Source: Candidatus Multivoradales bacterium
GTDB taxonomy: Bacteria; Acidobacteriota; Thermoanaerobaculia; Multivoradales; JAHEKO01
Direction: 5' to 3'
Length of the DNA stretch: 64,000 bases
Assembly (NCBI GenBank): GCA_965248055.1
Contig: CBDFIJ010000004.1
Span: 64,001 to 128,000 of the forward strand
How positions within the stretch are numbered: the first letter of the stretch is position 1; each line of letters starts with the position of its first letter. Shown here in pieces: positions 810-61,390 of this stretch. The notes beneath the pieces are model-generated. The model worked only from the letters and a program-made list of their open reading frames with translations, had not been told where the DNA came from and did not search any database. Both the position numbers and the translations under genes were made by a program.

Positions 810-1523
810 GTGCTGGCTGCTCTGGGGGTAAGAAAAGATGGCACCAAAGTCCTGGTAGCTCTACGGTTAGCAGCCAGTGAGGCAGGCAGTCACTGGAAGT
901 GGTTGATTGAAGATCTTAAACGCAGGGGCTTGAAAGCACCGCATCTCTTGGTCTCAGACGGCCACAAGGGTTTGGCGGTGGGAGTCAGGGCTTGGCCAGA
1001 GGCCAAAGTCCAGCGTTGTATCCAGCACAAGTGGGAAAACCTGAAGAAGCACTGCCCTAAGCATGCTCATGGTGAGCTCAAGCGAGACTGGGATCAAGTG
1101 GTGCGAGCCCAAGATGCCCTGGAGGCCCGAGAGAGCTATTCAATCTTTGTTGCCAAGTGGTCCAAGCTGGTGCCCGCAGTAGCCAGGAGTCTTCAAGAGG
1201 CTGGGATGGAACTGATCACTTTCTACGATCTACCGAGATCGTTGTGGCGATCCACAAGGACCACCAACGCGCTGGAGAATCTCAACCGTGAGTTTCGGCG
1301 CCGTACCAAGACCCAAGGCTCATTCTCGACTGAGGCAGCGGGTGTTACCTTGCTCTGGGGACTCGTCGCTTTCGGTCAGATCAGGATGCACCGCATCAAC
1401 GGCTACCAAGACTTGCACCGGATGCTTGACCGTCAAGCAGCCGCGTAGCACTAGAATCAACTAAACCTGACCGCGGGAGACGCTACGCCAAATACCAATT
1501 TCCACAAGATTCGGGACACATCC
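810..1523 (+). mobile_element. IS256-family element, 3' fragment (transposase C-terminus 810-1448 plus right end)
   Basis: Mutator-family motifs LLVSDGHKGL, QRCIQH, RTTNALENLNREFRRRTK; terminal tttccacaagattcgggacacatcc at 1499-1523; 5' part interrupted by the IS3. Confidence 0.85.
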
Positions 1524-2158
1524 GGGCTGCCGAAGCGTTTTGGTAATTGGCATACCGTCTATACGCGTATGAACCGTTGGGCAAAGAAAGGCGTGCTGGA
1601 TCGAGTGTTTAGTGAACTGCAACGCCAGCAAGTCATTCAGGTCCGTGTTGAGGCGGTTTCACTCGATAGCACAGCGGTTAAGGTACACCCTGATGGAACG
1701 GGCGCTCTAAAAAAAACGGTCCACAGGCGATCGGCAAGTCGCGGGGAGGATGGACTACAAAGATTCATATGGTTGCCGCAGATGCTCGGACCGCAGTGAA
1801 TTTTTCTCTGTCTCCTGGCAATGCTGCTGACGCGCCAGAGGGGCGTAAACTATTGAGAGAAACAACCCTATCGGCCAAATACATGATTATGGACCGAGCG
1901 TATGAAGGTAATGAAACACGCCAACTCGTGCTCGATCTTGGTCTTACACCTGTTGTGGCGCCGAAAAGCAATCGATTACAACCTTGGCTATACGACCGAG
2001 AAATGTACAAGAAGCGCAATGAAGTCGAGCGCTTGTTTCGTCGCTTGAAGGGGTTTCGTCGGATATTCTCACGCTTCGACAAATTGGACATAATCTTCAC
2101 ATTCTTTATACACTTCGCACTCATTGTCGATGCTATATCTAGTGTTAACACGCCCTAG
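1524..2158 (+). mobile_element. IS5-family (IS427-like) element, 5'-truncated, two ORFs joined by -1 frameshift
   Basis: GLPKRFGNWHTVYTRMNRW, DSTAVKVHPDG, A8 slippery run 1709-1716, DRAY, YKKRNEVERLFRRLKGFRRIFSRFDK; ends gtgttaacacgccCTAG. Confidence 0.85.
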
Positions 2159-2160
2159 TA

Positions 2161-2301
2161 CTGTTTGCCTCCGTTCTTTCTCTGGGAGTGTTTGTCTTGT
2201 CCAGGGGGTTTGGGCCGAGAATAAGGTGGCCCTTGCAGATTGCTGTGATTGTCCTATTGGCTCCTTTCTTGTGGACTATTGCAGCCGTGCTGACTGAATA
2301 A
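2161..2301 (+). pseudogene. 3' remnant of a small membrane-protein gene cut by the IS5
   Basis: Frame reads LFASVLSLGVFVLSRGFGPRIRWPLQIAVIVLLAPFLWTIAAVLTE-stop with no start codon. Confidence 0.35.
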
Positions 2302-2330
2302 GAAATGGATTGGATTGGTGGTGGTGGTGG

Positions 2331-2500
2331 GGTGACAGGCGATTATTGAGAGAATCTAGAATTCCTTGATTGGGCTGATCACGGATATATTGAACACGTC
2401 AAGTTCGTGATCTCATTGACGCCGAAACGGAACTTTCACTCAGCGGTTTAGCTCTTGGACGAGGAGAAGCTCGGGCTGGATATACCAATCTCTAAGCGCC
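2331..2500. repeat. Copy A of ~165-bp direct repeat (copy B at 4790-4958), bounded by GGTGACAGG
   Basis: 2336-2429 nearly identical to 4790-4883, weaker match continues to 2500/4958; contains GATCACG...CGTGATC inverted repeat. Confidence 0.9.
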
Positions 2501-2671
2501 GACAAAACCCAAACGGAACGGAGTCAACTAATCAGGAACGAATGGTCTGGGCGGTGGAAACTGGTACCGCCGACTTCGCGTTTGAAGAAGGCCTTGCTGA
2601 TACTCTGGAATGGGTTCGGGAACTTGTTGGACTAGGGATCTCCCGATTTTCCCCTTGTGACGGCGGACTCG

Positions 2672-3190
2672 ATGACGAAGAGAGGCAATCTCCTGAAAGT
2701 CTTGTGGCACCCTCTAACGCGCCCTTATGGGGGCGTCGAGAAGGTCGTTGAGCGCACGCTTGTGGCGCTGCCGAAAAAGTACACACGGGGTCTTGGGAGT
2801 GTCATTTTGCGAGATGTGCCATCCCTATCAAGAAAGGAGCGGGCCCGTTACCGCGTGCATGGACGGATGCACCTGCGAGAAAACACTCTTGGATCGTATT
2901 TTGCTCCGCGACACCACAAACTCGCTCACATTGAAATACTTGTAGACAATCTGTTCGCCTCATACCCTCGATTGCTCTATTGGACCAGAGTACTCCGCCC
3001 GCTAATGATTCGAGATACGCTATTTCACGAGATCGGCCACCATGTGGCACTACTTAACGGCCGTGCCGAGGGAGGTTCTGAGGCAGATGCCGAGAAATAC
3101 AAAAACGAGCTCGAAAAAGCCTACTATCGCGCTCGGTTTCCACGGTTCAAGTCGTTCCTTGCTCTAATTCGTCGAATGCTCCAAAAATGA
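2672..3190 (+). CDS. Hypothetical zincin-like (HExxH) protein
   Basis: Motif TLFHEIGHHV followed by E..A; open frame with ATG at 2672. Confidence 0.55.
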   Translation: MTKRGNLLKVLWHPLTRPYGGVEKVVERTLVALPKKYTRGLGSVILRDVPSLSRKERARYRVHGRMHLRENTLGSYFAPRHHKLAHIEILVDNLFASYPRLLYWTRVLRPLMIRDTLFHEIGHHVALLNGRAEGGSEADAEKYKNELEKAYYRARFPRFKSFLALIRRMLQK

Positions 3191-3279
3191 GTTCCTCAAT
3201 AAGGTGCTCACGTGATTTTCTGGAGAAGTCAAGGCCTGTGGCGAGGTCAAGAATCAGGCCACTCGTTGCGAGCTGGCTT

Positions 3280-4531
3280 TGACCTAGATCAAACACCTGT
3301 GAGACAGAGTCGTTAGTCGCCGAGGCTGTGGGGGATGTGGGAATCTCGTGAGAGATTTCCAAGGGCTGTGGGAAGGCAAGCGTAGCTGGCTTTGCACCAG
3401 CCCATCATCATCCACAGCCTTGACAAGTAAAAAGGGGGCCAAGATCCTTCGGGTCTATCGAATAACCCAAAACGAAGGGAGGCCCCCAGATGCAAATCGT
3501 CGCACTCGATCGCAGTATCTACAAGTACTACCGTGAAGACATCGTTGTCTTAAGCTCTCAGGCTCGTGATCGGCTGCGCTTGGTTGCGAGCTTCGAGCAA
3601 CTACGCGACAAGGGGATCTCGGGTGAAGAAGCAGCTCAGATCTTGGGCAAGAGTCGAGCTACCCTTTACCGCTGGCGCAAACGCCTTGAGCGTGGCCCCC
3701 GACATCTAGAACCGATATCAAGCCGACCCAAGCGGGTGCGTAAGGCTGACTGGTCACCTGAATTGGTACAGAGAGTCGAAAGTCTCCGTCGAGACTTTCC
3801 TGCCTGGGGCAAGGAAACCCTAGCGCCGCTGATCCAGGGCGAGGGCTTTGAGGTATCAGAAGCCACTGTCGGGCGTATCTTGCGCAAATTGATGGATCGA
3901 GGGGTAATCCACCGGGTACGCTACCGGCGCCAGAAGTACAAAAACTCCCGGCGTATGCGCCGGCTCCACGCTCAGCGACTGCCGAAATGGTGTCCCCGAC
4001 CAACGCGCCCTGGCGAGCGACTGCAGATCGACACGCTGCATCTGGTCCCTGCTCCAGGCAAGTGGCTCAAACACTTTTCAGCCTCCTGTCCGGTCAGCCG
4101 GTGGACAGTGGGAGAGATCTATCAACGTGCCACTTCTCGCTGTGCAGCACGCTTTCTAGACAAAGTCATTGCCGAGTGTCCGTTTGACATCACCTCGATC
4201 CAAGTGGACGGTGGTAGTGAATTTATGGATGAATTTGAGAAAGCCTGCCGAGATAGAGGCATCACCCTCTATGTGCTGCCGCCAAAGAGTCCGAAGCTCA
4301 ACGGCACCGTCGAACGAATGCAGGAAACCTGGAGAGGAGAGTTTTATGAAATGTATGAGCTACCCGATACTGTCTCGGCTTTGAGACCTTACATCCAGAG
4401 ATTCCAGGACCTCTACAACACCTACAGGCCGCACAAGAGCTTGAAAAGAAAACCCCCGGCAAGGTACCTTCTAAAGCTCGACCCAGGGGTCGTGCTCCCG
4501 CCGACTGTCTCAAAGGTACTGATCTAGGACA
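3280..4531 (+). mobile_element. IS481-family insertion sequence, apparently complete
   Basis: Imperfect terminal IRs tgacctagatcaaacacctgtgagacag / ctgtctcaaaggtactgatctaggaca; GCTT on both flanks (3276-3279, 4532-4535) as candidate target duplication. Confidence 0.8.
3490..4527 (+). CDS. IS481-family DDE transposase
   Basis: HTH (SRATLYRWRKR), rve core LQIDT / QVDGGSEF / NGTVER, YNTYRPHKSL. Confidence 0.9.
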   Translation: MQIVALDRSIYKYYREDIVVLSSQARDRLRLVASFEQLRDKGISGEEAAQILGKSRATLYRWRKRLERGPRHLEPISSRPKRVRKADWSPELVQRVESLRRDFPAWGKETLAPLIQGEGFEVSEATVGRILRKLMDRGVIHRVRYRRQKYKNSRRMRRLHAQRLPKWCPRPTRPGERLQIDTLHLVPAPGKWLKHFSASCPVSRWTVGEIYQRATSRCAARFLDKVIAECPFDITSIQVDGGSEFMDEFEKACRDRGITLYVLPPKSPKLNGTVERMQETWRGEFYEMYELPDTVSALRPYIQRFQDLYNTYRPHKSLKRKPPARYLLKLDPGVVLPPTVSKVLI

Positions 4532-4535
4532 GCTT

Positions 4536-4587
4536 CCCTATCTGCCAACGTAGCTGAGACACTTGGCCCCCTGATAATTAGAGGGCG
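4536..4587 (+). repeat. Orphan 52-bp copy of the IS3 left end, inverted relative to 757-808
   Basis: Exact reverse complement of 757-808. Confidence 0.9.
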
Positions 4588-4789
4588 CTACAGCCGACAA
4601 GAGTTAGTGGTTCGTTTCCAAACGAAGTCTTCAGTTGAGGCAGGAGGCGGTCCAGTGGCTTCGAAGACCAATACAGTCGAGCTGGTCTTGTCGGATTCTA
4701 AGAAATAGATTGCCGTCGGCCAGAGGTGACTGAGGTCCCAGATGAGATGAGTCGGGTCTCCGAGCCACATAAATCCCTGACTGAGGTTC

Positions 4790-4958
4790 CAGGCGATTAT
4801 TGAAAGAATCTAGAATTCCTTGATTGGGCTGATCACGGATATATTGAACACGTCAAGTTCGTGATCTCATTCACGCCGAAACGATACTTTCGCTCTGCGG
4901 GATCTAGCCCTTACACGAGGAGAGGCTCAAACTGGTCGCACCTATACCTGAAAACGCC
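4790..4958. repeat. Copy B of ~165-bp repeat; native downstream region of the 4958-5758 gene
   Basis: Starts right after the stop codon on the minus strand; matches 2336-2500. Confidence 0.9.
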
Positions 4959-5758
4959 TAGCGCAGGGCTAGATAGACTGTGACGCCGCGCCCTTGTAGC
5001 TGCACCCGTTCTCGCTCGATAGCAATCACCTGAAATCCGCCCACCATGTCTTCGGCGCTGAGCATGATGCCGTTGATGATGGCTACCGAGGTGCCGCTAC
5101 GAAAAGCGATCCCTTGTAGTTCCAATCTCTGATCGCCAGTATCTAGGGTCTGGACAAAGCTGGCTCCGTCTTGAAGCTGCGCTGATGGTTGTGCGGATGG
5201 CCCGGTCGGAGTTTGAACCGCACTTTCGCTATCGACCTCGCCGGGAAGTACGGAGCGATTCCGGTCCTCGGTCGGCGGTTGCTGACTTGCACTCGCTGCT
5301 TGGGATCTGCCGCCGATTGATGCGCCACGATTTTCGGTGGATGACGGAGGCACAGCTTCCTGCCGTTGGGAGGTCTGTTGGCGGTCTTGCCCGTTTGCCT
5401 GGGTGTCAGGAGAGAGGCCGTTGCCGGTCGTCTCACCAGCACCGGTAGTCTCGGTGGCGCCGTCTGGTTCTGGGGCTTGCGTGGCCGCAGGACTGCCGAC
5501 CGCCGACCGGGTCGATGAGGACGAAACCTCCGCCGTTTGGCCGGGATTCAAGGTAGAGCGGGCTACCATCCAACCGATACCGGCCCCGATCAAGGCCAGT
5601 ACCACCACACCGATGACAACCCCTGCCAATAGAAGTAGCCAGCGAGCTCTCTTGGCTCGCTCGGGCACCGTCGGTAGTCCGTACTCTCCCTTGCTCGCGG
5701 CTTCCCGCTCCAAGGCTTCGATTTTGGCCCGCTTGAGTGCGTCGTTGAGCAAACTCAT
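4958..5758 (-). CDS. ExeB/GspB-like type II secretion accessory protein
   Basis: N-terminal MSLLNDALKRA, single TM, low-complexity linker, C-terminal LQGIAF...AIING; follows an exeA-like ATPase. Confidence 0.65.
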   Translation of the reverse strand: MSLLNDALKRAKIEALEREAASKGEYGLPTVPERAKRARWLLLLAGVVIGVVVLALIGAGIGWMVARSTLNPGQTAEVSSSSTRSAVGSPAATQAPEPDGATETTGAGETTGNGLSPDTQANGQDRQQTSQRQEAVPPSSTENRGASIGGRSQAASASQQPPTEDRNRSVLPGEVDSESAVQTPTGPSAQPSAQLQDGASFVQTLDTGDQRLELQGIAFRSGTSVAIINGIMLSAEDMVGGFQVIAIERERVQLQGRGVTVYLALR

Positions 5759-6573
5759 GCTGCCTTGCCCTCTAACTCGGCGACTGCCCGGCGCACGTGA
5801 TGAACGCTGATTTCACGCTCTCCGTCGGCGTATCCGGCCAACAGGCTCTTATCGCACACCGCATTGATCAACCTCGGCACACCGCGAGAGTAACGGTAAA
5901 TGCGATGGAACGCCCAGCGAGAGAAGGTCGGCGGTTCGGCGGCTCCAGCAACTTGCAAGCGGTGGGCTATGTAGCGTTCGGTTTCACTGCGATTCAAGGG
6001 CGGCAAGTGAAAGCGCACGGTGATCCGTTGGCGCAACTGACGGAGATCCTTGCGCTCGAGGCGATCTCGCAGCTCGGGTTGACCAATCAACAAGATCTGC
6101 AACAGTTTGACTTGATCGGTCTCGAGGTTGGAGAGCAAACGGACCTGTTCCAGCAATTCCGGCGTCAGATCCTGCGCTTCATCGATAATCAAGGCGACAT
6201 CGCGTCCTGCCGACAGTTCGCTGAGCAGAAAGTCGTTCAATCGTTTGAGCGCTTGCGCCCGATTGTTGTACGGAACCGGAATACCGAATTCGACCAGAAT
6301 CGCAGCGAGTAACTGGGTAGCAGTCAATGTCGGATTGAGCACCAGAGCGGTGGTGTATTCATCTCCCAGACGCTCTAGAAAGGCCCGACACAGCGTGGTC
6401 TTTCCGGCTCCCACCTCGCCGGTAATCTGAATAAATCCTTTGCGTTCTTGAACACCATAGAGCATATGGTTGAGCGCCTCGCGGTGACGCTCGCTGTAGT
6501 AGAGAAAACGAGGGTCTGGCGTGATGTTAAACGGCGCTTCGCGGAATTGGTAGAAGTCGAGATACATGGTCAA
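5755..6573 (-). CDS. ExeA/GspA-family AAA ATPase
   Basis: MYLDFYQFREAPFNITPDPRF, Walker A GEVGAGKT, IIDEAQ, LIGQPEL, GVPRLIN. Confidence 0.9.
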   Translation of the reverse strand: MTMYLDFYQFREAPFNITPDPRFLYYSERHREALNHMLYGVQERKGFIQITGEVGAGKTTLCRAFLERLGDEYTTALVLNPTLTATQLLAAILVEFGIPVPYNNRAQALKRLNDFLLSELSAGRDVALIIDEAQDLTPELLEQVRLLSNLETDQVKLLQILLIGQPELRDRLERKDLRQLRQRITVRFHLPPLNRSETERYIAHRLQVAGAAEPPTFSRWAFHRIYRYSRGVPRLINAVCDKSLLAGYADGEREISVHHVRRAVAELEGKAA

Positions 6574-22252: not shown

Positions 22253-23962
22253 ATGAAGAACTACAAATGGAGTCTTGGTCGTTTTGCGATCGGCGCACTG
22301 GTTTTGTCGCTGCTGTTGGCTGGGGCGCCAGCCGAAGGCCAGATCCATGACCCGAGGGCGATTGATTCCGATCCAGCTACCGCTCAGGAACCCATCGCCC
22401 CGAAACTGGGGGGTTTGAGTGATTACCACTTCGAGGTCACCACCTCGAACCCGGAGTCACAAGCTTTCTTTGACCAAGGTTTGCGTCTGACCTATGGCTT
22501 CAATCATTCCGAAGCTCTGCGAGCGTTCAAAGAAGCGATTCGGCTTGACCCCAACAACGCCATGGCCCACTGGGGTTGGGCGCTGGCTTTAGGACCCAAC
22601 CTCAACTTGCCGATGATGCCGGACGTCGTGCCCCAAGCGCTGGACGCGATGCAACGGGCTCAGAACTTGGCGTCTGGAGTGAGTGATCAAGAACGCGACT
22701 TCATCGCCGCTTTGGCGACTCGCTATACCGACGACCCCGAAGCCGACCGATCGAGTTTCGATCAGGCCTACGCATCGGCGATGGAGAAGTTGTTCGCAAA
22801 GTATCCAGACAGTGCTGACGCCGGAACCCTTTACGGGGCCGCAATCATGAATACCACTCCGTGGAACTACTGGAATCGAGACGGCAGCCCTAAGCCCGCT
22901 GCCGAGCGCATGTTGCAGGTATTTGAACAGGTACTTCAACTCAACCCCGATCATCCCGGAGCTTTGCACTATTGGATCCACGCGGTCGAGGCGGTGCATC
23001 CGAAACGGGCGGTGGAAGCCGCCGACCGCCTTCTTCCTTTGATGCCGGGTATCGGTCACATGGTGCACATGCCCTCGCACATCTACATGCGGGTCGGCCG
23101 CTATGCAGACGCCTACGACGCCAACTTTGCCGCAGTCGAGGCCGACGAGGACTACATCACCCAGTGCCGAGCCCAGGGCATGTATCCACTTAACTACTAC
23201 CCGCACAACCAGCACTTCCTAGCTTGGGCGGCGATGTTCCAAGGTCGCAAGGAGGAAGCGATGAAAGCCTCCAGAGCGGTCGCCAACGGCATCCCCAACG
23301 CGTCGACGAATGAGGGGCGCGGTGCAGTTTGGAACCTCTATGAGACCTTCCGCAGCCAACCGATGTACACCATGGGCCGCTTCGGTATGTGGCAGGAAGC
23401 TCTTCGTGAGCCCGCCCCCGAAGCTAGCGCCCTGTTCATGAATGGCGTTTGGCGATACGTGCGTTCGTTGGCGCATACTCACACTGGCAACCTGCGCAAA
23501 GCGCGCAAAGAACTCAAATACTTGCGCCAACTGCAGTCCCAGGTAGCAGCGCACCCGGATTACACCATCGGCTTTGGTTCCGCCACCACCATGCTCACCA
23601 TCGCCTCCGAAATCGCCGCTGGCGAGATTGCCGCGGCCAAAGGCGACTACACCGAAGCCTTGGCCCACCTGGAAACCGGCGTTCGTCTGGAAGACAGTTT
23701 GCTCTACAACGAACCCCCCGACTGGTATTTCCCGGTGCGCCACATCCTCGGCGCCGTACTTCTCGAAGCCGGCCGAGCCACCGAAGCCGAAGTCATCTAC
23801 TGGGCCGATCTGGCCAAGAATCCTGAGAACGGCTTCGCACTGTTTGGACTGGAAAGGGCCCTCAGAGCGCAGGGGAAAACCGATCTTGCTGACCAGACAG
23901 CAGAACGCTTCACGATAGCTTGGGCAAGCGCGGATGGAGCACTCAAGTCTTCGCGCTATTGA
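22253..23962 (+). CDS. Secreted TPR-repeat protein
   Basis: Signal peptide, QAFFDQGL..YGFNH.EA, HPGALHYWIHAVE, GHMVHMPSHIY, YNEPPDWY. Confidence 0.8.
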   Translation: MKNYKWSLGRFAIGALVLSLLLAGAPAEGQIHDPRAIDSDPATAQEPIAPKLGGLSDYHFEVTTSNPESQAFFDQGLRLTYGFNHSEALRAFKEAIRLDPNNAMAHWGWALALGPNLNLPMMPDVVPQALDAMQRAQNLASGVSDQERDFIAALATRYTDDPEADRSSFDQAYASAMEKLFAKYPDSADAGTLYGAAIMNTTPWNYWNRDGSPKPAAERMLQVFEQVLQLNPDHPGALHYWIHAVEAVHPKRAVEAADRLLPLMPGIGHMVHMPSHIYMRVGRYADAYDANFAAVEADEDYITQCRAQGMYPLNYYPHNQHFLAWAAMFQGRKEEAMKASRAVANGIPNASTNEGRGAVWNLYETFRSQPMYTMGRFGMWQEALREPAPEASALFMNGVWRYVRSLAHTHTGNLRKARKELKYLRQLQSQVAAHPDYTIGFGSATTMLTIASEIAAGEIAAAKGDYTEALAHLETGVRLEDSLLYNEPPDWYFPVRHILGAVLLEAGRATEAEVIYWADLAKNPENGFALFGLERALRAQGKTDLADQTAERFTIAWASADGALKSSRY

Positions 23963-24094
23963 CCGCCTGTCGGTATCCGCACGAACGGTAATCTCTTTCC
24001 TCGGATCTTCGTAGGAGGGGCTTGTCCCCTCCCGAATTCGTAGGGACTAGAGTTCGCCTGTTGGAAATTCGTATCCTGTCACCGTATTTTTTCC
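23719..24094 (+). repeat. Copy 1 (native) of TPR-gene 3' end plus downstream region
   Basis: Aligns with 25712-26089 and 27902-28175; ends CCTGTCACCGTATTTT. Confidence 0.95.
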
Positions 24095-24242
24095 TCTTCT
24101 CGAAGCTATTCACGGAAAACTCTTCGACTGGGTGCTCTGGCTTAACGCCGAAAGGCCCCACTGGAGCCACGGACAAAAATCACCACTACAGTACGTAGAT
24201 GACATACCGATCAGTGCATATGTCCTGGACGCATATATTGAG

Positions 24243-24271
24243 TTGACAGGTTTAACGCCAACACATAGCCT
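24243..24271 (+). promoter_or_regulatory. Sigma-70-like promoter of the fic gene
   Basis: TTGACA-17 bp-TAGCCT. Confidence 0.5.
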
Positions 24272-24322
24272 TATTTTGGCAGAAACTATGACGACCAACA
24301 TGACCATCTTAAGCGTAGTGCT

Positions 24323-25483
24323 TTGAGGCGAGCCGTGACGAACCAATACCCGCACATAAGTTTTCGACGCACCTGGGGCTTGCCAGCAGGCGTTCACTAC
24401 CAGCTGGGAGAGTGCAGAGGGATCAACCGCGCGATCTCTGGAATGCCGATTCCCCCTCTTTATCACAGAGAACTTCTTCGGGTGTCCTTGCGAAAAGGTG
24501 CCATAGCCACAACAGCGATTGAGGGTAATAGCCTCACCGAGGGCGAGGTCAAGCGAATCGAAAGAGGTGAATCGCTCCCTCCAAGCAAGGCTTATCAGGA
24601 AAAGGAAGTAAAAAATGTTCTCGGTGCAATGAACATATTGTTCAATGAAGTGGTCGGCGAGAGACTAGGAGCCCCAATCACAGCCGACGTCATTCGCCGG
24701 TTCCACCACCTGTTAGGAAAAGACCTTGGTAAGCACTTTGACGCCATTCCAGGGAGATGGCGAGAAGATGCTCGGGTGGTGGGCTCATATCGATGTCCTG
24801 ACCATCGCATGGTGCCCAACTTAATCGATCAACTTTGTCAATGGCTACCAGAGTTTGGATACGGGTCCGAACAGCAGTCCTTCGAAGACGCTGTTATTCA
24901 AGCCGTCGTAACCCATGTATACATTGAATGGATACATCCATTTGGCGACGGAAACGGGAGAACTGGTCGCCTCCTTGAGTTTTACATTCTTTTGCGTGCT
25001 GGCAACCCCGACATCTCGTCCCATATTCTTTCAAATTTCTATAACGAAACCCGACCAGAATACTACCGACAAATAGGGCATGCATCGAGGAATGGAGGAG
25101 ACCTCACTGACTTCATTACCTATGCAGTCCAAGGCTTTAGAGACGGCCTGCTGGAAACGCTAGCGACAATTCAAGCCAGTGTCTTTGCAACGTCCTGGAA
25201 GAGCTATATCTATGACATGTTTGCAGGTGAGAAATACCGCAAAGATATATTCAAGAGGCGACGAGAACTTGCTTTGAATATGCCTCTCAATGGAGAACTT
25301 GCTGCTGAACAACTGGCTATTCTCACATCAAACCTCGCGCGCCGATACGCGAGGGTGACGGAGCGAACTCTAAAGCGAGATCTGTCTGCACTTGTTTCGC
25401 TTGGCCTAGTAGTAAAGTCCAAGGGTAAATATCGCGCAAATATTGCCGCACTGGAACCGAACCTACCGAAACAGCTCGACTAG
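24323..25483 (+). CDS. Fic family protein with C-terminal HTH-like region
   Basis: Canonical HPFGDGNGRTGR; N-terminal TTAIEGN inhibitory motif. Confidence 0.9.
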   Translation: MRRAVTNQYPHISFRRTWGLPAGVHYQLGECRGINRAISGMPIPPLYHRELLRVSLRKGAIATTAIEGNSLTEGEVKRIERGESLPPSKAYQEKEVKNVLGAMNILFNEVVGERLGAPITADVIRRFHHLLGKDLGKHFDAIPGRWREDARVVGSYRCPDHRMVPNLIDQLCQWLPEFGYGSEQQSFEDAVIQAVVTHVYIEWIHPFGDGNGRTGRLLEFYILLRAGNPDISSHILSNFYNETRPEYYRQIGHASRNGGDLTDFITYAVQGFRDGLLETLATIQASVFATSWKSYIYDMFAGEKYRKDIFKRRRELALNMPLNGELAAEQLAILTSNLARRYARVTERTLKRDLSALVSLGLVVKSKGKYRANIAALEPNLPKQLD

Positions 25484-25674
25484 CTGACGCGAAGAATGAC
25501 TTATCAGATTCCTCTTGCCCTGTCGTGAGGGTGACTGAGCATCACTACGCTAATAAGCGGGTGCAGCATTAGCTCCTTGGTTTCAATTGCGAAGTAAACG
25601 CTGTTTTGGGGAGTCGCTCGAAAGTTGATGACGTGCAACCTGCCACCCCCGGCTCCCCACACAACCTCTAAGGG

Positions 25675-25706
25675 ATGGGGACACAATAAAAGGATTGTGT
25701 CCCCAT
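25675..25706. repeat. Perfect 13-bp-stem palindrome at a cassette junction
   Basis: ATGGGGACACAAT-AAAAGG-ATTGTGTCCCCAT. Confidence 0.9.
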
Positions 25707-25711
25707 TTTCT

Positions 25712-26089
25712 CGACTGGTACTTCCCGGTGCGCCACATTCTCGGCGCGGTGCTATGTGAAGCCGGCCGAGCCATCGAAGCCGAAGTCATCTACTGGGCCG
25801 ACCTAGCCAAGAATCCGGGGAATGGTTTCGCGTTGTCTTGACTAGAAAAGGCTCTCAGAGCGCAGTGGAAAACCGATCTTGCTGACCAGACGGCAGAACG
25901 CTTCGCGGATGCCTGGGCGGATGCCGATGGTGCCCTCAAGTCTTCGCGCTATTGACCGCCTGTCGGTAACCACACGAGCGGTAATCTCTTTCCTCGGATC
26001 TTCATAAGGGAGGGGCTTGTTCCCTCCCGAATTCATAGGGACTAGAGTTCGCCTGTTTGAAATCCGTATCCTGTCACCGCATTTTTTCC
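25712..26089 (+). pseudogene. Copy 2: displaced, decayed TPR-gene 3' end plus downstream region
   Basis: DWYFPVRHILG...KSSRY frame with internal TGA at 25839-25841; ends CCTGTCACCGCATTTT. Confidence 0.92.
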
Positions 26090-26238
26090 AGGCGCGTCGA
26101 TTTGGCGCTATGGAACTCCTACCATCAGAAGCTAGGCTATACTTACCTGAACCAGCAGTAGCGACTAGCTTTTTGGTGGCGAGCGAGGGATCGAGCGTCG
26201 GGGCTACCAACGGGTAAGGGCAATAAGGAGAATCGACC

Positions 26239-27807
26239 ATGCCAAGCGCACCGAGTGACCTAAGAGCAGATTTGCCGAGCCGAGCAAGAGGTGGTGTCGA
26301 CATGTCCGCTTGGACGCCGTCGTACGCAGGCTATCCTGGCGCGGTCATTAAGCAGTTCTTTGTCAACAAGGATGGTGAAACCAAGACGCGCACCATCAAG
26401 CACCTCATCTGGGGCGACTGGATGTTAGTCGGGACTAAGAAAAAGGGTGGTCTGGTTGAAGCCTACTCGCGCGGCAAACGCGGTTTTGTAGATCCCGCCA
26501 GCGTCACCAATGAACGTGTGCTTGAAGTGGTTTTCGTAGATATCGGCCAAGGGGATGGCTGCCTCGTCGTAACCCCGAACGACGAACACCTGGTTATCGA
26601 CGCCGGCGAGCACGACAACATGTACCGTTTCCTAAATTGGCGCTACGGACGTTTCAAGAACGATTTCGAATTCGACGCGCTCTTTGTCACACACCCAGAT
26701 CAGGACCACTACAAGGGCTTTAAGGAATTCTTCGATCTAACGGCGCACCCAGATGCCAAGCGAATTAAGTTCACGAATGTGTATCACAACGGAATCGTCG
26801 AACGAAAAGCCAAGCACTCGCTCGGTCCGAGGGTCAAGATTGACGGTAAGTCACACATCAAGGGGCTGGTTCAGACTGACGGCGATCTCGACGACTTCCT
26901 TTCCGTTGAATCGCGTTGGAAGGGCAAGAACTATCCGACATTGCTTAACAGCATGGTGCAGAGCGACAGGGTCGGCAACATCCGCTCGCTCTCCGCTGAA
27001 GACGGTTTCGTCCCTGGTTTTGAAGGCGGAAAAGACCTCTCGATTGAGGTTCTCGGTCCAGTTCTCACTCGGCACAATGGTGAGCCTTCGCTCCGATGGC
27101 TGTCGAGCGTCGGCAAGACCAAGAACGGCCATTCGGTGGTACTCAAACTCCAGTACAAGAACATCAGCATGATGCTGGGCGGGGACCTCAACATCCCGGC
27201 CGAACATCTGCTGCTTGCACATCACACCGGCCTAGAATCTCCTCCCAAGAGTGAAGAACACAAGACTCTAGTAGCAGCAGCGCGTAAGGTCTTCCAAGTT
27301 GATATCGCCAAAGCCTGCCACCACGGCAGCGCTGACTTCACCAGTATCTTTCTCGAAGCCCTCAACCCGATCGCAACGGTTATTTCTAGCGGGGACGACG
27401 AGTCCCACGCACATCCAAGGGCGGAGACGCTGGGGACAATCGGTCTCTTCTCGCGCGGCTCCCGCCCACTCATCTTCAGCACCGAGCTTGCCCGCTCGAC
27501 CAAAGAGCGCATCAAACATCCCTCAGTCGTTCGCGGCAAATTCACCGCAGCCAAGGACAGGCTCCTTGAGCTGCACGCCGACCCGAACGCCAAACAAAAA
27601 GACATCGACAAGGCCGAGCAACAGTTCAAAAAACTGGTCACGGAAATCGAACGTAGCGTCGCCGTCTACGGCGCAATCAACGTGCGCACAGATGGGCACA
27701 AAGTCCTCTTTGCGCAAAAAATCGAGCGAGGCTCTGGATGGGACACCTACCGGCTAGAGCCGCAGGGTAGCAATGAGGTTCTTGAGTACGTCGCCAAGCA
27801 CCACTAG
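26239..27807 (+). CDS. MBL-fold metallo-hydrolase (ComEC/Rec2-like), alternative start 26302
   Basis: FVDIGQGD, IDAG, THPDQDHYKG, NGHSVV, LGGDL, KACHHGS, HAHP. Confidence 0.85.
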   Translation: MPSAPSDLRADLPSRARGGVDMSAWTPSYAGYPGAVIKQFFVNKDGETKTRTIKHLIWGDWMLVGTKKKGGLVEAYSRGKRGFVDPASVTNERVLEVVFVDIGQGDGCLVVTPNDEHLVIDAGEHDNMYRFLNWRYGRFKNDFEFDALFVTHPDQDHYKGFKEFFDLTAHPDAKRIKFTNVYHNGIVERKAKHSLGPRVKIDGKSHIKGLVQTDGDLDDFLSVESRWKGKNYPTLLNSMVQSDRVGNIRSLSAEDGFVPGFEGGKDLSIEVLGPVLTRHNGEPSLRWLSSVGKTKNGHSVVLKLQYKNISMMLGGDLNIPAEHLLLAHHTGLESPPKSEEHKTLVAAARKVFQVDIAKACHHGSADFTSIFLEALNPIATVISSGDDESHAHPRAETLGTIGLFSRGSRPLIFSTELARSTKERIKHPSVVRGKFTAAKDRLLELHADPNAKQKDIDKAEQQFKKLVTEIERSVAVYGAINVRTDGHKVLFAQKIERGSGWDTYRLEPQGSNEVLEYVAKHH

Positions 27808-27901
27808 GCAAAAAGCCTAGCGGTGGTTGTGAACGTGGGACTTGCACCGCGCTCAAATTAGCAACCAATGGAGGCAAAAGAAAAATGAGAGCAGTATCGA
27901 C

Positions 27902-28175
27902 AATCCTCACAATCGCTTCGCACCGTTTGGACTGGAACAGGCCTCAGAGCGCAGAGGGAAAACCGATCTTGCTGACCAGACAGCAGAACGCTTCGCGGTA
28001 GCTTGGGCCGACGCCGATAGAGCCCTGCATTCTTCGCGCTATTGACCGCCTGTCGGTCACCACACGAACGGTAATCTCTTTCCTCGAATTTTCGTAGGAG
28101 GGGCTTGTCCCCTCCCAGATCCATAGTGACTAGATTCCGCCTGTTTGAAATTCGTATCCTGTCACCGTATTTTTC
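27902..28175 (+). pseudogene. Copy 3: shorter displaced TPR-gene 3' end plus downstream region
   Basis: GKTDLADQTAERF...SSRY with small indels upstream; ends CCTGTCACCGTATTTT. Confidence 0.92.
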
Positions 28176-28274
28176 TCTCACTGACCGATTTTCCGCTTCG
28201 GTGGCACACGCAGATCAAGAGAGATCGAACGATCAACTCTACCTGTAGACTACTGATCCGCAGGGAGGTATTAC

Positions 28275-29564
28275 ATGCAGCTAGAACAGTTCTCGATTAG
28301 CGGACTTTTTGGAGGCAAGAATCATGAAATTGCATTTCCAATTCCGAATGAAGCTGACGCGGAACCCTCGCTTCTGATTATCCACGGTAAGAATGGGGTC
28401 GGAAAAACCACAATCCTACGGATGATTGCCGGATTAATGCGGCTGGATTTCGACTCGTTCCGTGATGTTCCGTTCGAGTCGGCCTCCCTAAGGTTCACCT
28501 CAGGTCAGACGATCTCTGTCAAGTTGCGCGAAAGAGGGAGGGGGAGAAAGCGTGCATTAAGTGTTGCATTTGACGAAATGAGTGTAGACCTTCATTCGAA
28601 GCACCATGGAGCGGCTGATGAAGGTGATACGGATCTGGTTAACACATTCCGAAAACAGTTCTTCGAAGCTACAAGCGCTATCAGTTTCGAATTTATCAAT
28701 ACACGCCGAGTTCGCGAACGATTCGAACGGAGTCAAGACTCCACTGATGTCTTGCGGGACGGCGTCGATCCCCGACTGTTGACTAGTCGGCACGGGCTTC
28801 GACTCCGAGCGCGTGGTTTAGTACACAGAGAGGAGGCAGCGCCGGAAAAGAAACTTGCTCTTCGCGTGAAGCGCTTCGTGCGAGATGCTCAAGTCGACTA
28901 CCGAGAATATTTTTCGACCACAGCCCCCGACCTTTTTCCGCGAATCCTGGAGCGCCTCGCTTCAACCGAAGAAGCGAATATCCAGCCACAGGATTTGCGC
29001 GAGCGGCTCGACCATATCCGTCGGCAAGACGAGGAGACATCACGGCTCGGACTTGGTCCTGACAAATGGGACTATGATCAACTCATTAGTCAACTAAACG
29101 ACTTGAGTAAGTCGCGACGTAAAGGACGGCTACAGGCGCTTGCAGCCCTCGACACCTACTCAGAATTCTTGGAATCGAGAGCTGCAGAAAGAAAACTGGT
29201 TGCGGATCGACTCCTTACGTTCGAGAAGCTAGTGTCGGAATTTTTTGTCGATAAGAGCGTGACCGTTGATCCAGCCGAAGGTTTGGTGATCACCGCAGAC
29301 TCAGGGGCACCCCTCACCGAACACCAACTCAGTTCTGGCGAGTTTCACTTGCTCTTCTTGATGGTGGCTGCCCTCAAGACCCGACGGCTTGGCACGGTGG
29401 TAGCTATCGACGAGCCTGAGATGTCGATGCACGTGGCTTGGCAGACGAAACTTGTACCTGCGCTCATAGAGTGTGCGTCAGGAGCTGAACCTTTGTTTAT
29501 CTTCGCCACACACTCACCAGATCTTGCGGCAGAATTTCCCGACGCAATGATCGATTTGAATTGA
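28275..29564 (+). CDS. ABC-type (AAA_15/AAA_21-like) ATPase, AriA-like
   Basis: Walker A GKNGVGKT, signature LSSGE, Walker B AIDEPE, FATHS. Confidence 0.85.
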   Translation: MQLEQFSISGLFGGKNHEIAFPIPNEADAEPSLLIIHGKNGVGKTTILRMIAGLMRLDFDSFRDVPFESASLRFTSGQTISVKLRERGRGRKRALSVAFDEMSVDLHSKHHGAADEGDTDLVNTFRKQFFEATSAISFEFINTRRVRERFERSQDSTDVLRDGVDPRLLTSRHGLRLRARGLVHREEAAPEKKLALRVKRFVRDAQVDYREYFSTTAPDLFPRILERLASTEEANIQPQDLRERLDHIRRQDEETSRLGLGPDKWDYDQLISQLNDLSKSRRKGRLQALAALDTYSEFLESRAAERKLVADRLLTFEKLVSEFFVDKSVTVDPAEGLVITADSGAPLTEHQLSSGEFHLLFLMVAALKTRRLGTVVAIDEPEMSMHVAWQTKLVPALIECASGAEPLFIFATHSPDLAAEFPDAMIDLN

Positions 29565-29577
29565 AGAGTTCTCTCGC

Positions 29578-30411
29578 ATGATCAGACGAGCGCCGCAAGC
29601 GATTATCATGGCGCATCGTATGGATTCGGATAGAAGAGTTGTTTACGTGGAAGGCTCTCACGATGCCGCTTTCCTCAAGTGGCTAGTTGGGGCTCGGAAA
29701 CACCCTGACGCGCAGATTCGCGAGATTGGAACTGTGAAACTCGACGACGTGGGCGATGGCGGAGAACGCGGACGGCTTATTGGATTCGCTACTCTCTTGT
29801 CGGTGGCGAATTGCGCCAGAATTAGGTGTTTTGCGGATGCGGACTTTGATCGTTTGCTGAAACGAGAATGTCCGAAGTCTGTGTGGCTGACGGATGGACG
29901 AGATCTCGAAGGCTACGTGCTCAGAAACGAGTGCGTCGAAAAAGTGCTACTACTAGGTATTGGCCAGCATGCGGTTTCCGCCCGAGACATATTGAACGAT
30001 GTCCTCACGGTCGGCCGTCGGGTCGGAATCCTCCGAGTGGTCTCTGAGGTGGATGAACTCGCGCTACCCTTCGCGCGAACCAAACTCCAGCGTCACCTCA
30101 CTATGTCGCAAGGGCGAGTCAACTTCGCGCTGGAACCCTTTCTGCAAGCCCTACTTCAAAACGCTGGGACGAGCCTAGCAATGAAGAATAGAGTCCTGAA
30201 GAGAGTCGCAGAAGTCGCTGACGATTTAGTTGACGTGCCGGATATCCAGATTATCCACGGCAAAGATGCATTCTGCCTCATTGAAAAAGCGCTATCTCAA
30301 TTTGGGATAAGAAGGGGGGCAGAGGTGGGCAAGATGCTGTGGAGTAGCTTCGAGTCGCGATTTGTTGAGCGGGGATCGAATCTCGACCAAGTGCAAAGTT
30401 TCTTGGGCTGA
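29578..30411 (+). CDS. DUF4435/TOPRIM-like putative nuclease, AriB-like
   Basis: VYVEGSHD, ADADFD, RDLEGY, HGKD; directly follows the ATPase. Confidence 0.75.
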   Translation: MIRRAPQAIIMAHRMDSDRRVVYVEGSHDAAFLKWLVGARKHPDAQIREIGTVKLDDVGDGGERGRLIGFATLLSVANCARIRCFADADFDRLLKRECPKSVWLTDGRDLEGYVLRNECVEKVLLLGIGQHAVSARDILNDVLTVGRRVGILRVVSEVDELALPFARTKLQRHLTMSQGRVNFALEPFLQALLQNAGTSLAMKNRVLKRVAEVADDLVDVPDIQIIHGKDAFCLIEKALSQFGIRRGAEVGKMLWSSFESRFVERGSNLDQVQSFLG

Positions 30412-30709
30412 CCGCTCTGAACGGCAGGTCAAGACGATCCCTGGTAGCGAGAAGTCGAACGACTTCCACAGCCCATGTGGAACACCCAGCCCACTGCGAC
30501 TCGTTTGACTTTTGGGGAGTCGCTCTAGAGCAGTCGGCTAGCCTACTCGACGGCCCAATAGCTGTGTTGATTGATGTTTTAGGGGAGCCGGGGCAGGCTA
30601 CCGAGGCCCCCCCCTCCCAATAGCGGAGCAAATGATGTTTTTGGGGGAGTCGCTCCAACGCCGATGGCTATGCCATCGGCATCGACCGACGACCTCATTC
30701 GGCACCGAA

Positions 30710-30795
30710 TGGTGCCGGAGGGGGGAGTCGAACCCCCACACCCTTGCGGATAACGGATTTTGAGTCCGTCGCGTCTACCGTTCCGCCACTCCGGC
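30710..30795 (-). tRNA. tRNA-Leu (CAA)
   Basis: GCCGGAGTGGCGGAACGGTAGACGCGACGGACTCAAAATCCGT...GTTCGACTCCCCCCTCCGGCACCA; long variable arm, encoded CCA. Confidence 0.97.
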
Positions 30796-48986: not shown

Positions 48987-49518
48987 CCGCTGCCGCTAGC
49001 AGTGCAAATTATCAAGGTCCGATAGTGAGCATCGTGGCCAGCCGAGAAGACCAGATCCATATCGATTGTCGGCGCGCCGACAAGGGGGTCCGGGAAATGG
49101 AACGAAAACGTACGCTAAGAGCCAGTGAGAGGCTTTGTTCCGATACCCGTTAGCGGCTGCCTACGCCAAGGGAAACCGGTCCTTTGAGGGTAGCCAAAAA
49201 CCTCTGTCACCCTGTGGCCTAGAGAGCCAGCATATCCGGGTGTCCAAGTTGCTCACAAACGGGTGGCTGAAACCTATAACTTTTGGCCAGGTGTGCATCG
49301 AGCAACGGCGGCGCAGGCCGCGGACTAACCGGCCCCCTAGCTTCGGGTGGGCTTGCGCGTGTCCGACGGAGGTCATTGGAGCTCGGCTCGTCGTTTACAG
49401 TAATTTCCACACCGTTGCGGCTCAAGCCTCAAACCTAGGGGTCCGGCGGCGAGGAGGCCAGCGAGATTGCCCCCGGTCGTTCATCCAAGGTTCAGACACC
49501 GAGTGTTCTTGTTGAATC

Positions 49519-59640: not shown

Positions 59641-60399
59641 ATGATCGACTCCCCCGCCAACCCAAAAATTCGCTTCGCCCAAGCGGTGCGTAGCGGTCAG
59701 CATCGCGAATTGGTACTACTGGAGGGGGAACGCGGAGTCCTGGAGGCGGCGAGCCACGGACTGCCCTTTGAACTCTTGCTGGCAACCCCAGAAACAGCCG
59801 GCATCCTGGACAGATCCTTACCTGGCCATCAATCGCTGACACCGCTGGCTACCAACGCCAAATTGCTGGCGACGCTGAGCGATCTGGACGCCCCGCGCGA
59901 CGTAATCGCGGTGGTTCGCAATCCGCGGCCCGATGCCGCACAGTTCTCGCTTTCTGGCGATCACCGCTTATTGGTCTACGCCGATCGGGTCCAGGATCCG
60001 GTCAATCTGGGAGCTTTGGCGCGCGTCTGCGCGGCGGTTGGAGCTGATGCTTTGCTCACCTCCCCGGGCTCCGTACACCCTAATCACCATCGCGCTGTGC
60101 GCGCTTCCGCGTTCAGTCTGTTGACGCTGCCGGTATACCCAAAACTTCCGTGGCAACAACTGCGTTTGTTGACTCAGGACGCGAACTGGATTGCTCTAGA
60201 CCCAAGGGCCAAACAGGGCATCTATGACTGCCCGGTGAACAGTCCGTTGGTGGCTGTGATCGGCGGTGAGATGGGAATCTCCCCGGAGCACCTGACCCAA
60301 GTACCAGCTGCGGCGATCCCCATGTCCGGCGAAGTCGAATCGTTGAATTTGGCGGTCGCCGCTGGGGTTGCCCTGTTTGACTGGGTCCGCCGTCTCTAG
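59641..60399 (+). CDS. TrmH/SpoU-family RNA methyltransferase
   Basis: QDPVNLGALAR, GGEMGI, IPMSGEVESLNLAVA. Confidence 0.9.
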   Translation: MIDSPANPKIRFAQAVRSGQHRELVLLEGERGVLEAASHGLPFELLLATPETAGILDRSLPGHQSLTPLATNAKLLATLSDLDAPRDVIAVVRNPRPDAAQFSLSGDHRLLVYADRVQDPVNLGALARVCAAVGADALLTSPGSVHPNHHRAVRASAFSLLTLPVYPKLPWQQLRLLTQDANWIALDPRAKQGIYDCPVNSPLVAVIGGEMGISPEHLTQVPAAAIPMSGEVESLNLAVAAGVALFDWVRRL

Positions 60400-60412
60400 C
60401 AGCCACAGGCTG

Positions 60413-61390
60413 CTAGAGACGCGCCTCTCGAATCGCTTCGGTCAGCAGAGGCACGATCTCATGCAAATCACCGACGATGCCGTAGTCGGACACCGCGAAA
60501 ATCGGCGCCCCGGCATCCTTGTTGATCGACACCACGACCTGGGATCCCTTCATCCCAACAACGTGCTGAATGGCACCGGAAATCCCCAGCGCAACGTACA
60601 GCTTGGGGGTCACGGTTTGACCACTCGAGCCGATCTGTCGGTCGCGCGGCAACCAACCGCTATCGATCACCGGGCGGCTCGCTGCAACCTCAGCGCCCAA
60701 GGCAGAGGCCAATTCTTCGACCACGCTCATCTTGTCTTGGTCGCCGATGCCACGACCTACGGCAACGATCACCTCAGACTGGCTAAGGTCGACCTCCTCC
60801 TCGGCGGCCTGTTCGGTGCCAATGATTTCCCGATCCGACACCGCACCCTCAAGCGAACTCGGCCAAGCAGCTAACTCCGCCGTTCCAGTCTGCACGTCGT
60901 CAGCACTCCAGGATCCAGACTGCACGGAAACCATAGTGCGGTCACCAGACGCAGTTACGGTTGCCACCAATTTGCCACCGAGCACCGGGCGCGACCACCG
61001 CAACGATTCACCTGACGAAGTCACAGAGGTGACTTCGGGGATCATTCCCGCCCCAACCCGCACCGCTAGCCGGGCCATGAAATCCACCGACTGATAGGTG
61101 TGCGGCAGGATCACCCATTGGGAATCCAGTTGTTCAACCAGAGCTGCCAATGCACCGGCATAGGCCCCTGGCGTGTAGCCAGTAAGTCGGTCGTTCTGGC
61201 AATGAAACACCTTTGCCACCGCGCACCCAGCGAGCTTCTCGGCAGCCTCCGTGCTCCCGTGCGGCAGCGCCACGACAATTTCTGCTCCGTTGGTTTGGGC
61301 CAACTGCTGCGCAGCGCAGATCGCCTCCAAACTCATTCTATGAATTCCGTCATCCTTTGCCTGAGCCACGACCAAGATCAGATTTGACAT
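60413..61390 (-). CDS. etfA: Electron transfer flavoprotein alpha
   Basis: QIGSSGQTVTPKLYVALGISGAIQH, INKD, DYGIVGDL. Confidence 0.95.
   Translation of the reverse strand: MSNLILVVAQAKDDGIHRMSLEAICAAQQLAQTNGAEIVVALPHGSTEAAEKLAGCAVAKVFHCQNDRLTGYTPGAYAGALAALVEQLDSQWVILPHTYQSVDFMARLAVRVGAGMIPEVTSVTSSGESLRWSRPVLGGKLVATVTASGDRTMVSVQSGSWSADDVQTGTAELAAWPSSLEGAVSDREIIGTEQAAEEEVDLSQSEVIVAVGRGIGDQDKMSVVEELASALGAEVAASRPVIDSGWLPRDRQIGSSGQTVTPKLYVALGISGAIQHVVGMKGSQVVVSINKDAGAPIFAVSDYGIVGDLHEIVPLLTEAIREARL

Follow-up and report, generated by a model that had tools for sequence, protein, structure and literature searches.

Related elements and the locus studied

Elements framed by duplicates of their target's flank, tandem stacks of such elements, and members without a recombinase of their own make up a known kind of architecture, and it is to this kind that the locus described here belongs, which lies downstream of an exeA/exeB-like operon in a 64,000-nt stretch from a Candidatus Multivoradales bacterium (contig CBDFIJ010000004.1, positions 64,001 to 128,000; hereafter the window, with positions counted from its first nucleotide). 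Cis-mobilizable elements (CIMEs) are bounded by att repeats, carry no integration genes and occur in tandem with other elements; the repeats of CIMEs and of the Dehalococcoides ssrA island are reportedly about 20-30 bp long. The attC sites of integrons fold into imperfect hairpins. According to an extract of one account (PMC13626634), e14 has icd on one side and a diverged pseudo-end, icdC, on the other, with differences that are largely synonymous. Staphylococcal cassettes are described, in the excerpted part of another (PMC11470126), as stacking behind rlmH, with recombinase-less members moved in trans and additional consensus att sites located elsewhere.

At the locus studied, the flank directly downstream of the 'exeB-like' gene is present twice, as a diverged direct repeat around an insert of about 2.2 kb, and we tentatively read this arrangement as the scar of a single-crossover (Campbell-type) integration. 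Integration is supported by the direct repeats around the insert, the lower GC content of the insert, the conserved cargo gene, and the same architecture at a second locus at 24-28 kb.

As in the e14 and phage 21 type of integration into icd of E. coli, direct repeats of the target's 3' flank lie on both sides of foreign DNA, and the 24-28 kb array shows exactly the largely synonymous pattern expected of a diverged target-end duplicate around an insert. The differences are that e14 is a prophage of ~15 kb with its own recombination functions, whereas the inserts here are one-gene segments of 1.6-2.3 kb; that the exeB-like repeat is wholly non-coding; and that an integrase or recombinase inside or beside the element was found in none of the 67 open reading frames (ORFs) of the window. 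SCC/SCCmec-like cassettes (including ACME, COMER and defence cassettes) resemble the present loci in forming stacks that follow a core gene's 3' end, in having a repeat at each junction and in their defence-type cargo, but their att repeats are short recombinase-binding motifs, in contrast to flank copies of 150-380 nt that have diverged, and the window encodes no Ccr-like serine recombinase. With CIMEs the loci share bounding repeats, the absence of integration genes and the tandem layout; the repeats of CIMEs (~20-30 bp) are far shorter. Integron cassettes likewise form a row of single-gene modules with a repeated non-coding element between them, but the repeat at 24-28 kb is no attC and includes a core gene's end, there is no intI in the window, and the folded repeat strands were not more stable than shuffled ones (z -0.38, -0.09 and -1.06). 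The combination of very small single-gene inserts with long, diverged flank copies is unusual.

A diverged direct repeat downstream of the exeB-like gene

Copy A of the flank (4782-4957, minus strand) is non-coding, lies directly downstream of the exeB-like gene and ends in CCTGGAACC (4785-4793); copy B (2328-2479, minus strand), its direct duplicate, ends in CCTGTCACC (2331-2339), hereafter the nonamer. The copies, delimited by repeat search, BLAST and alignment, have the same orientation and are 2.4 kb apart. The repeat search paired 2328-2446 with 4782-4900 (92% identity over 119 nt), and BLAST extended the match to 2328-2472 versus 4782-4928 (89% over 147 nt, E ~1e-49). An earlier reading of the DNA, made from its letters and ORFs (the sequence-only reading), had placed a duplicate of ~165 bp of this flank at 2336-2500; the repeat is real over the 147 nt just given, while the stretch 2480-2500 has no clear homology to copy A, and the similarity fades about 20 nt short of the stop codon of the exeB-like gene (4958-4960). 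The same reading had described identity as decaying away from the gene-distal end, and the alignment bears this out, with 77/78 identical positions in a core at 2340-2417 (paired with 4794-4871), 24/29 at 2418-2446 and 25/33 at 2447-2479, towards the gene. The minus-strand ends it quoted for the two copies are exact, and the fragments it saw between and beyond them were recovered as gene fragments and insertion sequence (IS) remnants.

The core contains short palindromes (GATCACG..CGTGATC and GAATCTAGAATTC), has no Rfam match and shows no unusual fold; the RNA fold of copy A gave a z score of 0.00. Searching the 64 kb with a two-copy nhmmer profile revealed no third copy of the flank (best other match E 0.35), and neither terminal inverted repeats nor a target duplication were seen at the repeat. 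These results bear on the possibility that the repeat is not peculiar to the exeB-like gene but represents either an intergenic element with dispersed copies or sequence from upstream in a module built around the 172-aa cargo gene. The palindromes of the core, the position of copy B upstream of that gene on the plus strand and the existence of an 86% paralogue of the gene would fit such an origin. With no third copy in the window, no terminal inverted repeats or target duplication, two copies that lie in the same orientation 2.4 kb apart, and a copy A that abuts the stop codon region of the exeB-like gene and not a gene of the 172-aa type, we consider it very unlikely.

Probable outer ends of the repeat

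On its minus strand, copy B reads CGCCTG-TCACC, followed by 18 nt, mostly a CCA run, and CAATCCATTTCTTA; copy A reads CGCCTG, followed by 57 nt, TCACC, 12 nt and CAATCTATTTCTTA. The corresponding plus-strand blocks, TAAGAAATGGATTG at 2299-2312 in copy B and TAAGAAATAGATTG at 4699-4712 in copy A, match at 13/14 positions and sit 18 nt beyond the nonamer in copy B and 69 nt further out in copy A. They are the probable outer ends of the repeat unit, the latter forming the right edge of the insert. With the outer 36 nt of copy B considered, 6 of 5000 shuffles reached a 13/14 match; the number was 27 for 71 nt and 57 for 171 nt, and among 5000 pieces drawn at random from the window it was again 6. 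The 57 extra nucleotides of copy A start and end with the same 18-mer, forming an internal direct repeat (4728-4793, minus strand) that occurs in copy A only: CCTGGAACCTCAGTCAGG (4793-4776) and TCTGGGACCTCAGTCACC (4745-4728) are identical at 14/18 positions with an exact core of 10 nt, and an internal repeat of 10 nt arose in just 18 of 5000 shuffles. This indicates that copy A underwent a small local duplication where copy B has the nonamer, and homology between the copies probably resumes past it.

The outer block of copy B adjoins an open frame on the plus strand (2161-2301; 46 aa at 2161-2298, stop TAA), whose TAA forms the first bases of the 14-mer. The frame has a hydrophobic, membrane-like C-terminus, is convergent with the exeB-like gene and adjoins an IS5-type remnant; a search of 1.84 billion proteins yielded no relative, its one match (E 4.4e-5) having no aligned stretch. 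The frame may be the remnant end of the original neighbouring gene. If so, the repeat unit would correspond approximately to the entire spacer separating two convergent genes, with an insert that would span about 2498-4698 and a nonamer that would be internal to the unit instead of its boundary. We consider this delimitation probable, with statistical support of about the same order as that for the nonamer match discussed below. At the position of the motif, the ancestral spacer may have had either CCTGTCACC or the longer form CCTGGGACCTCAGTCACC.

Proposed integration by a single crossover

Near-identity in the middle (77/78), 76% identity on the gene side, and indels plus the 13/14 block on the outer side make up the pattern expected of resident/incoming chimaeras joined in the core. 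In the integration that we favour, a small circular foreign DNA would have brought along a diverged version of the spacer that follows the exeA/exeB-like operon, and would have crossed over with the resident spacer inside the nearly identical ~80 nt. The outcome would be one spacer copy on either side of an insert of ~2.2 kb (about 2498-4698) that holds the zincin-like 172-aa gene, with the IS481-like element entering the insert later. Joining could have been mediated by a site-specific recombinase acting in trans or by general recombination (RecA), and further rounds of the process would account for the array of three copies at 24-28 kb, where each new insert would come to lie beside the gene. 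We infer both the circular intermediate and the place of the crossover; the ~80-nt core would mark the site of exchange or, alternatively, a later conversion tract.

The GC content of the insert is 53% (2501-3424) and 52% (4588-4698), compared with 58.5% in the exeAB-like genes and 58.3% across the core region at 7.4-24 kb. A single gene (2672-3190, plus strand) accompanies the IS481-like element in the insert. It codes for a 172-aa protein with an HEIGHH motif (HExxH), a member of a conserved small family of which four proteins were found: that of the window, an 86% paralogue on a contig equal in length to that of the window (3,345,972 nt), a 71% homologue from a contig of 1.6 Mb and a 33% homologue. 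Judged from the paralogue, the genome contains at least two copies of this gene. The protein has no Pfam, NCBIfam or PADLOC family. Its structure, predicted from the four-sequence alignment with a mean predicted local distance difference test (pLDDT) of 78.5, gave weak zincin-like and YbeY-like matches (all E >= 0.013), and its atlas neighbours are unnamed clusters with 62-98 members. The ORF at 2455-2751 had no candidate in the protein collection.

Several observations weigh against integration. Tyrosine or serine recombinase domains were found in none of the 67 ORFs of the window, where the transposases Transposase_mut, DDE_Tnp_1 and rve were all that turned up; a scan of related loci for an empty site produced 167 pattern matches and a single, spurious Streptomyces match (45%, 49 residues); the outer extension of homology depends on one 13/14 match (6-57 of 5000 shuffles); the repeat is wholly non-coding, so that the selection test used at 24-28 kb is inapplicable; and the region is rich in IS remnants, which leaves other routes to a duplication.

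One such route would be a rearrangement in situ, in which the spacer was duplicated by unequal exchange or an IS-associated event, the cargo gene and the IS arrived later, and the core was homogenised by gene conversion. The sharp step in identity from 99% to ~76-83% fits a conversion tract, a stretch of 4.6 kb contains four or more remnants of IS type, and a perfect inverted block of 52 nt (757-808 / 4536-4587) is a sign of recent rearrangement. Yet several independent events would be required, and neither an IS end nor an IS target duplication coincides with the ends of the repeat; known IS target duplications are a few bp long. A rearrangement of this sort also fails to account for the second occurrence of this architecture at 24-28 kb, where one flank copy diverged under purifying selection. 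It is, in our estimate, a rather unlikely explanation.

If integration by a single crossover is the correct reading, this genome gains single accessory or defence genes as tiny islets without a recombinase of their own, which integrate via a copy of the target's own flank, a compact version of e14 or of SCC-like cassettes, and local repeats alone would be a cheap pointer to insertion hot spots.

The three-copy array at 24-28 kb

The comparison locus, identified by repeat search on the plus strand, consists of a TPR gene's 3' end and the flank downstream of it, in three copies (23719-24094, 25712-26089 and 27902-28177). Each comprises the last 57-243 nt of the gene and 132 nt downstream; the right edges of the copies coincide and the left edges differ. 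The copies are about equidistant (85-88% identity in pairs), and their distal ends are sharp: the similarity beyond them is no better than what 1227, 1345 and 488 shuffles out of 2000 attain. The cargo between them consists of a SoFic-type gene (PADLOC E 2.6e-58) and an MBL-fold gene with weak LmuA/Avs1a-like matches; the third copy is followed by an AriA/PtuA-like ATPase and its 277-aa partner, and a tRNA-Leu(CAA) closes the island.

Over 77 codons, the second copy and the resident TPR end have 48 identical codons, 19 with synonymous changes only and 10 with non-synonymous changes, one of which is a stop. In simulations, the synonymous-only share was 22-24% when decay was neutral and 35-39% when a duplicate arose in situ and one of the two copies was constrained. 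The 19/29 observed are thus improbable under both models (P ~1e-6 and P 0.001-0.003, respectively), which argues that the second copy diverged mostly while it was a working gene end. On the strength of this codon pattern, the copy would fit DNA imported from a relative or a surrogate end borne by the element. The third copy, with 19 codons (10 identical, 4 synonymous, 5 non-synonymous), says little. Since a flank copy at this locus was once a functional gene end, recurrent integration is likelier than a one-off slip.

A donor of the copies was sought among TPR homologues. The closest outside homologue is 69-71% identical in the C-terminal region (among the best 120 of 2285), and as such homologues are farther from the copies than the copies are from each other, no donor can be named.

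The segment between the TPR gene and the tRNA-Leu (24095-30700) forms a compact defence islet, comprising SoFic, the MBL-fold gene and the AriA/PtuA-like ATPase with its unassigned partner. The SoFic insert ends in a strong hairpin (GGGGACACAAT..ATTGTGTCCCC) and a T-run (25660-25711); TPR homology begins directly after the hairpin, at CGACTGGTA, which is also present ~30 nt inside the left end of the insert. Downstream of the tRNA-Leu(CAA) (30710-30795, minus strand), a unit with GAGCGACTCCCC(C)AAAA occurs at 30500-30710 in two to three copies within 200 nt, with a further copy at 25584-25630, close to where the SoFic insert ends on the right (49 nt, 78%, E 0.023); the CGACTCCCC part of the unit has the same sequence as the T-arm of the tRNA. 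These units may be left over from integration directed by the tRNA, or they may form a small family of repeats.

The nonamer shared between the two loci

The sequence-only reading held that both loci follow the same logic and that, as their repeats are otherwise unrelated, the shared motif points to one genome-wide mechanism. The first part holds: each locus has a core gene, its 3' flank, an insert of lower GC content and a diverged direct copy of the flank. The repeats are indeed otherwise unrelated: between 250-nt stretches of the two repeat families the best local alignment is the nonamer itself, equalled by 195 of 500 shuffles. The claim that the nonamer is the core at which the 24-28 kb repeats end fared less evenly, for it is exact in all three copies there, but these run 11 nt past it (GTATTTTTTCC, kept in 3/3). 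A common mechanism is not borne out by the motif: copy A has CCTGGAACC, which differs at 2 positions, the offsets differ (identity at the exeB-like locus stops within the nonamer or at most 3 nt past it, 0 to +3 versus +11), and the bases on either side of the nonamer are unrelated between the loci and form no dyad symmetry.

CCTGTCACC occurs 4 times in the window, versus 0.45 expected, a count reached in 0 of 100 shuffles. Three of the four occurrences are copies of one 24-28 kb repeat, leaving two that are independent. With one mismatch allowed, there was no excess (20 found, 15.5 expected; 12 of 100 shuffles reached 20), and CGCCTGTY had 11 matches versus 6.1 expected, 6 of them inside the three 24-28 kb copies. 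Pairs of random, unrelated windows of ±15 nt (±20 nt) from this DNA share a nonamer in the same orientation with P 0.0025 (0.005), and about twice as often in either orientation. Counted post hoc, with two variant ends available on one side, the chance of the match is ~0.005-0.02, which is suggestive only.

In one alternative, a site-specific recombinase encoded elsewhere would recognise CCTGTCACC behind unrelated genes, in their 3' flanks, and would insert cassettes at it, with the nonamer as crossover site at both loci. Both repeat families have the exact nonamer at their distal end or close to it, and its orientation relative to the core gene is the same in both; such a positional match has a chance of about 0.0025-0.01. 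Identity between copies A and B breaks directly after CCTG. A precedent for movement in trans, and for consensus att sites at several places, is given for recombinase-less staphylococcal cassettes in the excerpted part of PMC11470126. Nevertheless, the gene-proximal copy A carries CCTGGAACC, the 24-28 kb repeats continue for 11 nt past the nonamer against 0-3 nt at the exeB-like locus, and the nonamer has neither likeness between the loci on its two sides nor dyad symmetry; a length of 9 bp would be little for a full recombinase site. Homology between copies A and B moreover seems to resume beyond the nonamer, where copy A has a local 48-nt duplication, one-mismatch variants are not enriched, and a recombinase gene was not found among the 67 ORFs of the window. 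We regard a shared crossover core as unlikely and coincidence as the more likely source of the match.

An extended form of this alternative, which we find distinctly unlikely, would make CCTG(TC)ACC in unrelated 3' flanks the landing site of a trans-acting recombinase that stacks single-gene, often anti-phage cassettes, each with its own copy of the flank, across the chromosome, in an integron-like manner without attC; on this view, the interrupted core near the exeB-like gene would be a site that is spent or damaged. Were CCTGTCACC a real core, the loci would belong to a multi-site cassette system, which on present evidence is a minority reading.

Genomic context and insertion sequences

The window is chromosomal DNA (57.6% GC) with core genes including dnaB, alr, purC, pepA, rpoN and parAB; across its whole length the tRNA-Leu is the sole Rfam match, and at 2200-5000 there was none at E <= 1. 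A scan of 2100-5100 for promoters and terminators gave counts at the level of shuffles. The operon, of secretion type and situated towards the left end of the window, consists of an ExeA-like AAA_22 ATPase (5755-6573, minus strand; 315.8 bits against the XrtA/PEP-CTERM-associated ATPase model, cutoff 324.5) and the 266-aa gene downstream of it (4958-5758, minus strand), which matches no family above threshold; as the partner of the upstream ATPase it plausibly bears the name 'exeB-like', an unverified label. All DNA to the left of the operon is accessory, comprising the IS481-like element, the 172-aa gene, the IS5-type and IS256/Mutator remnants and an ORF pair in 1-741.

Within the insert, the IS481-family-like transposase (3490-4527, plus strand; helix-turn-helix and rve domains) scored 186.6 bits with NF033577, below the cutoff of 224, and the ends of the element are poorly defined, with an inverted match of only 11 nt near them. 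A broken gene spanning this element was considered and rejected, as its removal in silico at 1,800 choices of junction gave no convincing longer frame. In a plasmid collection, a distant search with 2159-4960 returned three Thermus records that matched 149 nt of the transposase only.

Beyond copy B lie an IS256/Mutator transposase fragment (810-1448, plus strand), IS5-type DDE fragments (1569-2158, plus strand) and the minus-strand ORF pair (741-478 and 264-1), which by its look resembles an IS3-type orfA/orfB, with no Pfam match. The 52-nt block at 4536-4587 (plus strand) is 100% identical to 757-808 in inverted orientation; one copy follows the stop of the IS481-like transposase and the other lies immediately upstream of the IS3-like pair. 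As this polarity is unfit for a shared terminal repeat, the block suggests a recent rearrangement or a hitch-hiking fragment.

Elsewhere in the window, self-comparison revealed palindromes at 60391-60421 (31 nt, 90%) and 49066-49083 (18 nt, perfect), which are probably terminators or operator sites.

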